DNA of 64,000 bases from Escherichia coli O127:H6 str. E2348/69. Lineage in GTDB: Bacteria > Pseudomonadota > Gammaproteobacteria > Enterobacterales > Enterobacteriaceae. Made by a program: the position numbers. Of this stretch, positions 20,201 through 38,200 are shown piece by piece. Each line of letters begins with the position of its first letter. Position 1 is the stretch's first letter. The DNA lies in assembly GCF_000026545.1 (NCBI RefSeq), contig NC_011601.1, one strand, 5' to 3'.

Positions 20201-23200
20201 GCCAACGCCAGGTTTACCGCCGTGGAGGATTTACCCACGCCACCTTTACCGGAACTGACCGCGATAATGTTCTTCACGCCGTTAATTCCCGGCTGATTCT
20301 TCACGCGTTTCAGAGTGGCTATGTTATGCGACAGTTTCCAGTCGATAGCTTTCGCTCCGGTGATGCGCAGCAGTTCGGCGCTACATTGCTCTTTTAACTC
20401 TTCGAACGCGCTATGCCAGACGAATGGCATAACCAGTTCCACATGCAGCGTGTCGTCCATCCAGGCGACATGGTGCAACGCTTTCAGCGTTGTGAGGTTA
20501 TGCTTCAGGGTTGGGTGCTGAAAATTGGCCAGTGTCCCGGCGACCATTGCGCGCAAGGCTTCTGGTGATTTGGCCTGGGATTGTTCGTTCATCCCGACTC
20601 CTTTTTTGTATAGATAAACCATCAGTTGATAGTTTACCTGAAGAATATAGAGAAGTACTTACTTAACATTTTCCCATTTGGTACTATCTAAGCCCTTTTC
20701 ACTATTAAGAAGTAATGCCTACTATGACTCAAGTCGCGAAGAAAATTCTGGTGACGTGCGCACTGCCGTACGCTAACGGCTCAATCCACCTCGGCCATAT
20801 GCTGGAGCACATCCAGGCTGATGTCTGGGTCCGTTACCAGCGAATGCGCGGCCACGAGGTCAACTTCATCTGCGCCGACGATGCCCACGGCACGCCGATC
20901 ATGCTTAAAGCTCAGCAGCTTGGTATCACCCCGGAGCAAATGATTGGCGAAATGAGTCAGGAACATCAGACTGATTTCGCAGGCTTTAACATCAGCTATG
21001 ACAACTATCACTCGACGCACAGCGAAGAGAACCGTCAGTTGTCTGAGCTTATCTATACTCGCCTGAAAGAGAACGGTTTTATTAAAAACCGCACTATCTC
21101 TCAGTTGTACGACCCGGAAAAAGGCATGTTCCTGCCGGACCGTTTTGTGAAAGGCACCTGCCCGAAATGTAAAGCGCCAGATCAATACGGCGATAACTGT
21201 GAAGTCTGCGGCGCGACCTACAGCCCGACTGAACTGATTGAACCGAAATCGGTGGTTTCTGGTGCTACGCCGGTAATGCGTGATTCTGAACACTTCTTCT
21301 TTGATCTGCCCTCTTTCAGCGAAATGTTGCAGGCATGGACCCGCAGCGGTGCGTTGCAGGAGCAGGTGGCAAACAAAATGCAGGAGTGGTTTGAATCTGG
21401 TCTGCAACAGTGGGATATCTCCCGCGACGCACCTTACTTCGGTTTTGAAATTCCGAACGCGCCGGGTAAATATTTCTACGTCTGGCTGGACGCACCGATT
21501 GGCTACATGGGTTCCTTCAAGAATCTGTGCGACAAGCGCGGCGACAGCGTAAGCTTCGATGAATACTGGAAGAAAGATTCCACTGCCGAGCTGTATCACT
21601 TCATCGGTAAAGATATCGTTTACTTCCACAGCCTGTTCTGGCCTGCCATGCTGGAAGGCAGCAACTTCCGTAAGCCGACCAACCTGTTTGTTCACGGCTA
21701 TGTGACGGTGAACGGCGCGAAAATGTCCAAGTCTCGCGGCACCTTTATTAAAGCCAGCACCTGGCTGAATCATTTTGACGCCGACAGCCTGCGTTACTAC
21801 TACACTGCGAAACTCTCTTCGCGCATTGATGATATCGATCTCAACCTGGAGGATTTCGTTCAGCGTGTGAATGCCGATATCGTGAACAAAGTGGTTAACC
21901 TGGCGTCCCGTAACGCTGGCTTTATCAATAAGCGTTTTGACGGTGTGCTGGCAAGCGAGCTGGCTGACCCGCAGTTGTACAAAACCTTCACTGATGCCGC
22001 TGAAGTGATTGGTGAAGCGTGGGAAAGCCGCGAATTTGGTAAAGCTATCCGTGAAATCATGGCACTGGCTGACCTGGCTAACCGCTATGTCGATGAACAG
22101 GCTCCGTGGGTGGTGGCGAAACAGGAAGGCCGCGATGCCGACCTGCAGGCAATTTGCTCGATGGGCATCAACCTGTTCCGCGTGCTGATGACTTACCTGA
22201 AACCGGTACTGCCGAAACTGACCGAGCGCGCAGAAGCATTCCTCAATACAGAACTGACCTGGGATGGTATCCAGCAACCGCTGCTGGGCCATAAAGTGAA
22301 TCCATTCAAGGCTCTGTATAACCGCATCGATATGAAACAGGTTGAAGCACTCGTGGAAGCATCAAAAGAGGAAGTAAAAGCCGCTGCCGCGCCAGTAACT
22401 GGCCCACTGGCAGATGATCCGATTCAGGAAACCATCACCTTTGACGACTTCGCCAAAGTTGACCTGCGCGTGGCGTTGATTGAAAACGCAGAGTTTGTAG
22501 AAGGTTCTGACAAACTGCTGCGCCTGACGCTGGATCTCGGCGGTGAAAAACGCAATGTCTTCTCCGGCATTCGTTCTGCTTACCCGGATCCGCAGGCACT
22601 GATTGGTCGTCATACCATTATGGTGGCTAACCTGGCTCCGCGTAAGATGCGCTTCGGTATCTCCGAAGGCATGGTAATGGCTGCTGGTCCTGGCGGGAAA
22701 GATATCTTCCTGCTAAGCCCGGATGCCGGTGCTAAACCGGGTCATCAGGTGAAATAATCCCCCTTCAAGGCGCTGCATCGACAGCGCCTTTTCTTTATAA
22801 ATTCCTAAAGTTGTTCTCTTGCGATTTTGTCTCTCTCTAACCCGCATAAATACTGGTAGCATCTGCATTTAACTGGATAAAATCACAGGGATGCAGAATG
22901 AGACACTTTATCTATCAGGACGAAAAATCACATAAATTCTGGGCGGTGGAGCAACAGGGAAATAAACTGCATATCAGTTGGGGAAAGATCGGTACCAACG
23001 GGCAAAACCAGGTAAAAAGTTTTGCAGATGCTGCGGCGACGGAAAAAGCGGAACTGAAGCTGATTGCGGAGAAGGTGAAGAAGGGATATGTGGAGCAAGC
23101 GAAGGATAATTCTTTGCAACCTTCCCAAACGGTAACGGACTCTCTCAAGGTAGCGGACTTATCCACCATTATTCAGGAACAACCCTCTTTCGTAGCAGAA

Positions 23201-35200: not shown

Positions 35201-38200
35201 ACCAGGTTGTTGAAGAGATTATGGCGCGACTGGCAAAGGAAGTTCGTCAGGCTTTTTCTGGAGTACGCGATCGCCGTCGCCGCTCATTTATTCCACTGGC
35301 GCGAAACTTTGATTTCAAAAGTACTCTGCGCGCCAACCTGCAACACTGGCACCCGCAACACGGCAAGTTGTATATCGAATCCCCCCGCTTTAACAGCCGC
35401 ATTAAACGCCATAGCGAACAATGGCAACTGGTCCTACTGGTTGATCAAAGCGGATCAATGGTGGACTCGGTGATCCACTCCGCAGTGATGGCGGCCTGTT
35501 TATGGCAGTTACCCGGTATTCGTACCCATCTGGTGGCGTTTGACACCAGCGTCGTCGATCTCACGGCAGACGTTGTCGATCCGGTAGAATTATTAATGAA
35601 AGTGCAATTAGGCGGCGGGACCAATATCGCCAGTGCCGTGGAGTATGGTCGGCAACTTATTGAACAACCAGCGAAAAGCGTCATTATTCTCGTGAGCGAT
35701 TTTTATGAAGGTGGGTCATCATCATTGCTGACGCATCAGGTGAAAAAGTGTGTCCAGAGCGGCATCAAAGTGCTGGGGCTGGCAGCGCTCGACAGCACCG
35801 CAACGCCTTGCTATGACCGCGATATGGCCCAGGCGCTGGTTAATGTCGGCGCACAAATAGCCGCAATGACACCGGGCGAGCTGGCTTCCTGGCTTGCGGA
35901 GAATCTTCAGTCATGAATTCACGACGTCCGGAATTATTAGAACTGACACCACAGGCACTGACGGCGTTAAGCAATGCCGGTTTTGTTAAGCGCAGCCTTA
36001 AGGAACTGGAAAATGGCAACGTCCCGGAAATCAGTCATGAGAACGGCGCTTTAATCGCCACCTTCAGTGACGGTGTCCGTACCCAGCTGGCGAACGACCA
36101 GGCACTGAAAGAGGCTCAGTGCACCTGCGGGGCCAGCGGCATGTGCCGTCATCGCGTGATGCTGGTGTTAAGTTATCAACGACTTTGTGCCACCGCCCAG
36201 CCTACGGAAAAAAAAGAAGAAGAGTGGGATCCGGCAATCTGGCTGAAAGAACTGGCTACCCTGCCCGATGCCACCCGCAAACGCGCGCAGGCGCTGGTCG
36301 CTAAAGGCATCACCATTGAGTTGTTCTGTGCGCCTGGCGAAATTCCCTCTGCCCGATTACCGATGAGCGATGTGCGTTTTTATTCCCGCAGCAGCATTCG
36401 CTTCGCACGCTGTGATTGCATTGAAGGCACACTTTGCGAACATGTCGCACTGGCTGTGCAAGCCTTCGTCGAGGCCAAAACTCAGCAAGCGGAATTTACT
36501 CATTTAATCTGGCAGATGCGCAGTGAACACGCCACATCATCTGATGATCCGTTTGCCAGCGAAGAAGGCAAAACGTGTCGTCAATATGTTCAGCAATTAA
36601 GCCAGGCATTATGGCTGGGCGGGATAAGTCAACCGCCAATCCATTACGAGGCCGCTTTCAGTCGCGCGCAGCAAGCGGCAGAACGCTGCAACTGGCGATG
36701 GGTGAGTGAATCGCTACGGCAATTGCGCGCCAGTGTTGATGCCTTCCACGCCCGTGCCAGCCACTACCATGCCGGAGAATGCTTACGTCAGCTTGCGGCA
36801 TTAAACAGTCGATTAAATTGCGCACAAAAGATGGCGCGGCGCGACAGTGTTGGTGAAGTTCCTCCTGTGCCCTGGCGCACGGTCGTTGGCGCTGACATTG
36901 CCGGAGAAGCAAAACTTGATCATCTGCGGCTGGTGTCTTTAGGTATGCGTTGCTGGCAGGATATTGAGCAGTATGGTTTACGCATCTGGTTTACCGATCC
37001 CGACACAGGAAGTATTTTGCATCTTTCGCGTAGTTGGCAGAGAAGCGAACAGGAAAACTCACCGGCAGCGACGCGTCGGCTGTTTAGTTTTCAGGCTGGC
37101 GCACTGGCAGGTGGGCAAATTGTTTCACAAGCTGCAAAACGCAGTGCCGATGGCGAGCTGCTGTTAGCGACCCGTAACCGCTTGAGTAGTGTTGTTCCAC
37201 TGTCGCCAGACGCCTGGCAAATGTTGAGCGCGCCGTTGCGCCAGCCGGGCATTGTGGCTTTGCGGGAATATTTACGCCAGCGTCCCCCCGCCTGCATACG
37301 ACCACTCAACCAGGTCGATAACTTATTTATTCTGCCGGTAGCGGAGTGTATTTCGCTCGGTTGGGATAGCAGCCGCCAGACGCTGGATGCGCAGGTAATC
37401 AGCGGCGAAGGGGAAGATAATGTGCTGACGTTATCCCTTCCGGCATCTGCCTGTTCTCCTTTTGCCGTTGAACGCATGGCGGCGCTTTTGCAACAAACAG
37501 ACGACCCCGTGAGTCTGGTTTCTGGCTTTGTCAGTTTTGTAGAGGGGCAATTGACACTGGAACCACGGGTGATGATGACAAAAACCCGCGCCTGGGCGCT
37601 GGACGCAGAAACTGCGCCTGTGGCACCGCTACCTTCTGCCAGCGTTCTGCCTGTGCCGCCTACCGCTCATCAGTTGCTGATGCGCTGCCAGGCGTTACTT
37701 ATTCAACTGCTCCATAACGGCTGGCGCTATCAGGAACAGAGTGCTATTGGTGAGGCAGAGTTGCTGGCGAATGACCTCACCGCGGTGGGTTTTTATCGGC
37801 TGGCACATGTGTTGGGACAATTTCGTAATACAGAAAGCGAGGCACGGGTAGAAGCAATGAATAACGGTGTTTTACTTTGCGAACAATTATTCCCCATGCT
37901 TCAGCAACAAGGATGAAATAGTGCTTTTTATTAAGAGTTCTACTCCTGTTCCGGACTGCTCACGCCACAGTATTAGGCATATCCTATATAGCCCCTGGTG
38001 AGAGTCACCAGTTCCTTGATTAAATAAAATGGAGTTTTACATGAAGGCTTTCAATAAGCTGTTTTCCCTTGTTGTTGCATCTGTTCTGGTTTTCTCTCTT
38101 GCTGGCTGCGGTGACAAAGAAGAATCAAAGAAATTCAGCGCCAATCTGAACGGCACTGAAATTGCCATTACCTATGTCTACAAAGGTGACAAGGTGCTTA

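Follow-up and report, generated by a model that had tools for sequence, protein, structure and literature searches.

Why two large tandem proteins of the DUF4132 family, MolR and YehI, are encoded beside the yehLMPQ cluster in Escherichia coli, and whether these genes belong together, is the question raised by a stretch of 64,000 nucleotides (nt) from the chromosome of E. coli O127:H6 str. E2348/69 (contig NC_011601.1), hereafter the window. The yehLMPQ cluster encodes a predicted MoxR-class AAA+ ATPase, a large DUF5682 protein, a von Willebrand factor A (vWA) protein and a putative SWIM zinc-finger protein. From the comparison of loci given below, the five gene families very probably form one functional unit, of which DUF4132 is an integral fifth member. 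This membership appears to be new, whereas the yehLMPQ cluster is already known, as is the YehL subfamily, each as an uncharacterised entity.

The locus and its genes

In 5425 of the 5426 complete E. coli genomes the region occupies the same position, flanked by metG and yehR. The components of the module in the window are as follows.

22871..22890, plus strand: LexA (SOS) box-like site AACTGGATAAAATCACAGGG, 8 nt 5′ of the molR start codon
22898..26694, plus strand: molR, encoding a WGR domain, a HEAT-like solenoid and a DUF4132 domain; about 1262 amino acids (aa) if intact; the open frame stops at 26665; 'frameshifted' in RefSeq
26704..30330, plus strand: yehI, a DUF4132 paralogue of molR that lacks WGR; 1208 aa, intact
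31409..32497, plus strand: yehL, predicted MoxR-class AAA+ ATPase; orthologue matched to Pfam AAA_5
32508..34787, plus strand: yehM, DUF5682 protein with a predicted TIKI/TraB/ChaN/EreA-like alpha/beta domain and, C-terminal to it, a HEAT-like solenoid
34780..35916, plus strand: yehP, CoxE-type vWA protein with a complete metal ion-dependent adhesion site (MIDAS); orthologue matched to Pfam VWA_CoxE and VWA_2
35913..37916, plus strand: yehQ, putative double SWIM zinc-finger protein whose C-terminal region is long; matched to Pfam SWIM

The genes yehL and yehM are 10 nt apart, yehM and yehP share 8 nt, and yehP overlaps yehQ in an ATGA. The open reading frames (ORFs), junctions and motifs listed by the first-pass annotation of this DNA were all recovered in place, with GEPGTAKS located in YehL, DQSGSM in YehP and the double SWIM motif in YehQ. 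That annotation had also taken MolR as intact, which was not borne out: relative to strain NRG857C, molR was found to contain a 1-nt deletion at about 26582 that swaps out the final approximately 36 residues, and the gene is a pseudogene in RefSeq. A 9-nt in-frame tandem insertion, GCAGCACTG, was also observed at 24209–24217 of molR, where it extends an Ala-Ala-Leu repeat in comparison with NRG857C.

Co-conservation of the five gene families

Diverse homologues of YehM (DUF5682) were aligned, and one genome per species was scanned with two peptide patterns across about 100,000 species, by which relatives of YehM were confirmed in 328 species. Eighty loci from different species were fetched with 10-kb flanks and were searched with the six E. 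coli proteins. The gene yehL was found to be present in all of the 76 testable YehM loci, followed by the presence of yehP in 76 of 78, yehQ in 69 of 72, and a DUF4132 gene, usually with WGR, in 52 of 56. Co-conservation of the MolR/YehI paralogues with yehLMPQ had been named beforehand as the test of their grouping, and with these counts, near-universal for the core, the grouping held. In 40 loci the DUF4132 gene immediately precedes yehL, and in the 5 loci of Burkholderia it comes right after yehQ. A single copy was found in 35 loci, two copies in 12, three copies in 3 loci and four copies in 2. Clustering of the 2462 flanking ORFs gave no further conserved neighbour beyond genus-level synteny.

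Compact five-gene operons were found in Pseudomonadota, Actinomycetota, Myxococcota and Bacillota. Serratia was found to contain one five-gene operon, and Streptomyces the order DUF4132/AAA/DUF5682/VWA/SWIM-like with 4-nt overlaps at all junctions, including that of DUF4132 with AAA. The order in Agrobacterium vitis was AAA/DUF5682/DUF4132/VWA/SWIM, and a plasmid of Bacillus mycoides was found to carry the complete five-gene set with overlaps. Measured from the stop codon of one gene up to the first codon aligned in the next, the median gap was 15 nt for yehL-yehM, 17 nt for yehM-yehP and 5 nt for yehP-yehQ. The near-overlapping yehL-M-P-Q junctions pointed out earlier in the window are thus a feature with conserved spacing, and since this tight spacing is kept in about 75 species it is not due to chance.

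Among the sampled loci, a distance of more than 1 kb from the DUF4132 gene to yehL was found in Escherichia only; Klebsiella contains both paralogues, yet has a compact DUF4132/yehL junction. Judged from these gene orders, the arrangement in E. coli is derived, a putative ancestral single operon having been split in Escherichia specifically, and this reconstruction appears to be new. The earlier description of two halves, with a toxin-antitoxin locus and a repeat between them, is therefore correct for the inserts in the window, whereas the split itself is peculiar to Escherichia and the other lineages are compact.

In Chitinibacter, Azoarcus and Xenophilus (loci L045, L048, L050 and L079), yehM was observed to be separated from yehP by an insertion of 0.8–1.6 kb, and that of Chitinibacter (L050, 12527–13567) encodes a 346-aa protein of unassigned type.

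YehL, YehP and YehQ

YehL was found to contain the Walker A motif GEPGTAKS starting at residue 83, followed by the Walker B motif VRFEEI (EE), the sensor TAN (Asn) and KRRF (RR pair), all of which were invariant in 80 of 80 sequences. The nearest solved sequences were the AAA domains of midasin (expectation value, E, 9e-10), followed by MoxR (2r44) and then McrB, and weak matches to GvpN and McrB were found in NCBIfam. YehL has been described as the name-giving member of a recognised MoxR subfamily (PMC3893208). By these motifs, and encoded as it is beside a vWA partner, YehL is assigned as a MoxR AAA+ ATPase of the YehL subfamily.

YehP (378 aa) could be aligned end to end with its orthologues and contains the MIDAS motif DQSGSM at residue 222; the five residues of this site, D222-x-S224-x-S226, T281 and D307, were invariant in 74 of 74 sequences. 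YehQ was found to contain CxC..CxH motifs at residues 70 and 167, and Pfam SWIM was matched at residues 56–88 (E 8e-4) and, at just E 0.24, at residues 161–184. The Cys/His residues were conserved in 71 of 71 sequences for the former motif and in 66 of 71 for the latter, so that YehQ carries the SWIM signature CxCxnCxH in two copies, both of them putative zinc fingers. Outside the SWIM motifs, searches of Pfam and the PDB gave no match to YehQ. Nothing useful was retrieved from the PDB by sequence or profile with YehM, YehI, YehQ, YehP or the DUF4132 alignment as query, and the six module proteins gave weak generic matches only in NCBIfam.

Predicted fold and candidate active site of YehM

In Pfam, YehM was matched by DUF5682 only, with the TIKI/TraB families unmatched at the sequence level, and a sequence search of the PDB gave no relative. 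An AlphaFold2 model was built from 31 diverse sequences, with a predicted local distance difference test score (pLDDT) of 87 and a predicted template modelling score (pTM) of 0.82. In this predicted model the fold of residues 1 to about 240 matches TraB, HopBA1, ChaN and EreA-like structures, by which the TIKI superfamily has been defined in the literature, and the domain is modelled as a parallel beta-sheet core with flanking helices, as in the solved members. YehM is accordingly modelled as a TIKI/TraB/ChaN-type hydrolase fold joined to a HEAT solenoid, an assignment that appears to be new.

In the active members of the superfamily, catalysis relies on a His-Glu pair that is part of a 2His/2Glu motif. 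YehM was found to contain conserved G-x-R-H-H after strand 1, followed by E35 in strand 2 and G-G-x-H202 after a later strand. H11 (with H12), E35 and H202 are invariant or nearly so and are placed at the ends of beta-strands in the predicted model; E83 and D101 are likewise invariant, and the conserved His and Glu residues are retained in Agrobacterium, Streptomyces and Bacillus. On this model, catalytic competence of YehM is likely. The location of the conserved motifs at strand ends is shared with the catalytic residues of TIKI, Ere and RRSP within the TIKI/TraB/PrgY/GumN/ChaN/erythromycin-esterase superfamily, whereas YehM has in addition a long insertion of helices and, at its C terminus, a HEAT solenoid, and differs by a cytoplasmic, AAA+-linked setting that is undescribed for the superfamily.

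MolR, YehI and the DUF4132 family

MolR (22898–26665) and YehI (26704–30330) were found to share 38% identity over 1178 aa, and MolR contains Pfam WGR at residues 6–69 (E 1e-16) followed by DUF4132 at residues 989–1174 (E 4e-51), which confirms the two as tandem paralogues with an N-terminal WGR in MolR, as first described. In an AlphaFold2 model of YehI residues 760–1208 (pLDDT 89), HEAT repeats are predicted, followed by an alpha/beta DUF4132 region for which no confident PDB match was found. A sequence search with a 376-aa fragment of YehI gave close E. coli relatives only. The DUF4132 family itself was found to comprise 5687 representatives at 50% clustering.

Rhodococcus and Chondrinema were seen to have solo DUF4132 genes, and for Deinococcus a two-gene operon that includes a DUF4132 gene has been reported in the literature. 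On a plasmid of Rhodococcus pyridinivorans (locus L096, 5407–6542 and 7033–10341) the solo DUF4132 gene adjoins a RES-domain toxin gene pair, and MoxR, vWA, DUF5682 and SWIM genes were absent from its vicinity. Because DUF4132 also occurs solo while the core nearly always occurs with DUF4132, the family may represent a client that is served by a dedicated MoxR–vWA machine in some lineages; this asymmetry suggests the pattern expected of a client or a sensor.

The copy number of DUF4132 is polymorphic within E. coli. A third tandem DUF4132 gene was observed between molR and yehI in strains E26, 21220 and DG351-2, and the third copies are located at 4209–8003 of locus L088, 4112–7873 of L094 and 102–3863 of L095.

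Variation and selection within E. coli

Among 11 E. coli strains, pseudogenes were flagged in 5 for molR, 2 for yehM, and 1 each for yehI, yehL and yehQ, with none for yehP. All of the large genes were intact in 4 of the 11 strains, and the third tandem DUF4132 gene was present in 3; strains in which every gene is intact include MS1665, AHB29 and DG351-2. In K-12, both molR and yehQ are disrupted. The ratio of nonsynonymous to synonymous substitution rates (dN/dS) between E. coli strains was 0.02–0.33 for all six genes, from which purifying selection in the species is concluded; diversifying selection on the paralogues, which was also considered, is ruled out by values that do not exceed 0.33.

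Matches to the module were found in 38 of 72,556 plasmid records, mostly megaplasmids, and one weak match was found among 50,697 phage records. The PHROGs families phrog_20839, 36602, 30700, 33984, 31592 and 29006 were observed to match MolR, YehI, YehM (split), YehP and YehQ almost perfectly. A phage origin was rejected, as these matches are near-identical fragments of E. coli and apparently represent host DNA in predicted prophages.

Regulation and links to DNA damage

The site AACTGGATAAAATCACAGGG upstream of molR was found to be one mismatch from CTGT-N8-ACAG. Matches of this kind would turn up in the window by chance, and it is therefore the position and the literature that carry weight: molR has been included among the LexA-regulated genes whose SOS box is known (PMC6590174), and in Klebsiella grimontii and Intestinirhabdus an equivalent box was found in the corresponding place. 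LexA boxes were searched for upstream of the operon in 58 loci and in Agrobacterium, Streptomyces and Serratia, with motifs of the gamma/beta, alpha, Gram-positive, Xanthomonas and Myxococcus types applied by lineage, and no lineage-fitted box was found in Erwinia, Serratia, beta-proteobacteria, Xanthomonadales, Myxococcota, Actinomycetota or Agrobacterium.

The molR promoter has been described as activated by BglJ-RcsB, and yehL and yehM as de-repressed in an hns/stpA mutant. In Deinococcus, a DUF4132 protein and a WGR protein have been described as controlled by DdrO/IrrE and induced by mitomycin C. In the searchable literature DUF5682 was unmentioned, DUF4132 was mentioned in four papers, and no functional study was found. 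The earlier statement that the module genes have no assigned function therefore stands as far as functional studies are concerned, and falls short in that molR is known as a gene of the LexA regulon and a target of BglJ-RcsB.

Elements between yehI and yehL, and base composition

The spacer separating yehI from yehL within the window was found to contain the following features.

30391..30707, plus strand: yehK, small spacer gene of about 105 aa (RefSeq), frameshifted here relative to K-12 YehK
30715..30850, strand unassigned: ERIC-type dispersed repeat, from copy number and recognised sequence
30889..30978, minus strand: zorO, type I toxin ORF of 29 aa, which translates to MDTLTQKLTVLIAVLELLVALLRLIDLLK
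31224..31297, plus strand: orzO, antitoxin small RNA (sRNA), Rfam RF02083 OrzO-P

The repeat at 30715–30850, which we take from its sequence to be an enterobacterial repetitive intergenic consensus (ERIC) element, was found in a median of 9 copies per genome across 5425 E. coli genomes, a number that fits ERIC. The orzO match to Rfam OrzO-P scored 91.5 bits against a gathering score of 60, and the area was found to contain divergent promoter-like sites at 31160–31210 followed by a terminator-like hairpin at 31272–31292. With a 29-aa hydrophobic toxin ORF and a divergent OrzO sRNA, the locus is identified by sequence as a type I toxin-antitoxin system of the zor-orz kind. The zor-orz locus was placed between yehI and yehL by Fozo et al. 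2010 (PMC2887945). It is present as a single copy in E2348/69, in contrast to the tandem pair in O157:H7. The zorO-orzO and ERIC inserts lie outside the module, being absent from K-12 and from all non-Escherichia genera.

The gene yehK was observed in Escherichia loci only, and was frameshifted in the window and in 4 of 11 sampled strains. A GC-rich hairpin was observed at 30338–30359, right after the yehI stop, and was scored by the scan as terminator-like on the minus strand only. The guanine-cytosine (GC) content was 0.53–0.56 for yehLMPQ (31000–38000), with lower values of 0.46–0.52 in the flanks at 19–23 kb and 38–41 kb, and was 0.44 in the yehK-zorO spacer (30000–31000). In the neighbouring yeh fimbrial operon, the periplasmic chaperone gene yehC (about 17347–18022) is annotated as frameshifted in E2348/69.

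Discussion

The reading favoured here, which is a tentative one drawn by analogy, is that the module is a dedicated MoxR–vWA remodeller that acts on or with WGR–HEAT–DUF4132 proteins, with YehM supplying hydrolysis. YehL would form the MoxR-type AAA+ ring and YehP the CoxE-type vWA adaptor, whose MIDAS would grip an acidic residue of a partner, and the ring would pull on the gripped partner by ATP hydrolysis. YehM, with its TIKI/TraB-type domain on a HEAT scaffold, may then cleave or remove a peptide or an ester-linked group, and the two SWIM zinc fingers of YehQ may recognise the substrate or nucleic acid. The partners dedicated to this machine would be MolR and YehI, whether they serve as sensor-adaptors or are clients that it resets or processes. 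The gripping and pulling steps are proposed by analogy with CbbQ–CbbO, NorQ–NorD, RavA–ViaA and midasin; the physical complex, which the first-pass annotation had taken to be stoichiometric, the direction of its action, the hydrolase activity and the cellular role of the module are what we infer. In Escherichia, the DUF4132 gene would have been duplicated to two or three copies, followed by the insertion of yehK, ERIC and zorO-orzO between the DUF4132 genes and yehL, and the resulting split would have given a molR-yehI unit under LexA and BglJ-RcsB control and a yehLMPQ unit silenced by H-NS.

Several known systems share parts of this arrangement. In the MoxR/vWA pairs RavA–ViaA, NorQ–NorD, CbbQ–CbbO and CoxD–CoxE, an AAA_5/MoxR gene likewise adjoins, in tight linkage, a vWA gene with a complete MIDAS, whereas the present module adds three obligatory partners (DUF5682, the SWIM protein and WGR-DUF4132) and has no metalloenzyme client nearby. 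Midasin/Rea1 resembles it in that an AAA ring and a MIDAS latch strip a factor from a large HEAT-rich assembly; midasin is, however, one polypeptide of 5000 aa with six AAA modules, whereas YehL and YehP are separate proteins, so that the analogy is mechanistic only. To our knowledge, midasin has no hydrolase or SWIM partner. The class I chelatases (BchI/BchD/BchH and CobS/CobT/CobN) also combine an AAA+ ATPase, a vWA/MIDAS protein and one large partner, but the large partners of the module are unrelated to BchH and CobN, no tetrapyrrole genes are nearby, and two further components are present.

A more specific form of the remodeller, for which the probability is low, is a DNA-damage-responsive proteolytic machine with a logic like that of p97–SPRTN/Wss1 or midasin. 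WGR recognises DNA breaks in poly(ADP-ribose) polymerases (PARPs). By analogy, WGR and SWIM could bring the complex to damaged DNA or trapped protein–DNA complexes, from which the trapped protein would be pulled out by the MoxR–vWA motor, to be cut by YehM through its TIKI-type domain. Such a role would account for two regulatory connections that are independent of each other, namely that LexA controls molR in E. coli and that in Deinococcus the DUF4132 and WGR proteins are under DdrO/IrrE.

The suggestion of the first-pass annotation that the module belongs to nucleoside triphosphate (NTP)-dependent conflict systems was weighed against the remodeller. As an anti-phage system, it would use its WGR and SWIM domains to detect nucleic acid that is foreign or damaged, with the diversifying DUF4132 paralogues as sensors, and the core would activate a YehM protease for arrest or killing. 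The patchy taxonomy (328 of about 100,000 scanned species), the variation in DUF4132 copies (1–4 per locus and 2–3 among E. coli strains), the frequent pseudogenes, the H-NS-silenced yehLMPQ, the Rhodococcus solo DUF4132 beside a RES toxin gene and the precedent of MoxR–vWA ternary conflict systems are in keeping with it. The hallmarks of the VMAP/iSTAND systems were given as variable effectors and effector displacement by Kaur, Burroughs, Iyer and Aravind (2020). The vWA–MoxR–VMAP/iSTAND systems share with the module a MoxR and vWA core and a large third component, iSTAND also has a CoxE-type vWA, and peptidase domains are frequent there. However, no variable effector domain was detected on YehP, the architecture was fixed over the 80 loci in four phyla with no effector swapping, and SWIM and WGR are unmentioned in Kaur et al. 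2020; no VMAP-C or iSTAND component turned up among the module proteins, for which no direct search was made. Further, PADLOC-DB 2.0 gave 0 families for the six proteins at E <= 0.01, the module is near-absent from phages and rare on plasmids, it occupies one chromosomal site in E. coli, its flanks are lineage-specific with no defence genes common across genera, and dN/dS is well below 1 for all genes. With the PADLOC null, the invariant architecture, the fixed site and the scarcity on phages and plasmids, the suggestion was not upheld, and a conflict role is regarded as unlikely and rated below the favoured remodeller.

It is more doubtful still that the module inserts a cofactor or metal, as a chaperone like the chelatases or CoxD/CoxE, into a metalloenzyme unrelated to it, with YehL and YehP behaving as BchI/BchD, CobS/CobT, NorQ/NorD or CoxD/CoxE do, YehM binding the cofactor by its ChaN-like fold, and the 'molybdate metabolism' label of molR being real. 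YehP does belong to the CoxE branch and gave a weak match to a cobaltochelatase subunit model (E 0.0012), YehL matches a PHROG family labelled porphyrin biosynthesis, haem-binding ChaN is among the best structural matches of YehM, and characterised MoxR–vWA pairs mostly mature metalloenzymes. Yet metalloenzyme or cofactor-biosynthesis genes were conserved neighbours in no lineage, the conserved SWIM and WGR-DUF4132 partners point to nucleic acids or proteins, and YehM retains the His and Glu typical of hydrolytic TIKI members. The name molR derives from a genetic study of 1990, and this original assignment is weakened by the disruption of molR in K-12; the molybdenum genes of Deinococcus showed no joint response with the homologues. 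The remaining alternative, that the E. coli module is a decaying, functionless remnant and that conservation reflects function in other lineages only, is quite improbable. It draws on the pseudogenes of the sampled strains, on the loss of molR and yehQ in K-12, on the success of ST131 L1a with a transposon in the region, on the splitting of the operon by insertions, and on the mention of all of the genes in the paper on the genome-reduced strain DGF-298. It is opposed by the continuing purifying selection seen in dN/dS, by the fully intact strains and the third DUF4132 copy gained in some, by the retention of the region in 5425 of 5426 genomes, and by pseudogenes that are independent, recent events. 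Decay is real in individual strains, including E2348/69, yet leaves the species-wide purifying selection unexplained.

Certain observations weigh against the remodeller itself. Of the 2His/2Glu motif in YehM, both His and one Glu have candidates, whereas the first Glu was not identified, and the fold alone is no proof of hydrolysis, since the superfamily has non-catalytic members (ChaN, which binds haem, and PMT, which lacks the catalytic motif). In the operons, the DUF4132-to-yehL junction of most Proteobacteria is a short intergenic gap without overlap (median 92 nt to the first aligned codon), no DUF4132 gene was found in 4 of the 56 testable loci, and Betaproteobacteria bacterium MS502 (loci L055 and L061) contains yehL and yehM alone, 0.9 kb apart, with no yehP, yehQ or DUF4132 gene detectable within the flanks. 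Pseudogenes are common in E. coli, with at least one among the large genes in 7 of the 11 strains, and the blaCTX-M-15 transposon TnMB1860 has been reported in the metG/DUF4132/yeh region of 184 isolates of ST131 sublineage L1a, where DUF4132 genes are disrupted (PMC9334617). The molR-yehI and yehLMPQ units of E. coli have different promoters and regulators, and general SOS control of the operon was rejected, the boxes being confined to Escherichia, Klebsiella and Intestinirhabdus.

The module is a large, putative five-component AAA+ machine of at least four phyla that is present in the best-studied bacterium without a known function or a solved structure. The membership of DUF4132, the predicted fold of YehM and the link to LexA and DdrO, which govern unrelated damage regulons, point to the mutants, stresses and strains with which it can be approached; null phenotypes may be misleading in K-12, in which molR and yehQ are broken, or in E2348/69, in which molR is broken. 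If a motor coupled to a hydrolase is indeed encoded here, the repertoire of MoxR proteins would extend beyond cofactor insertion.

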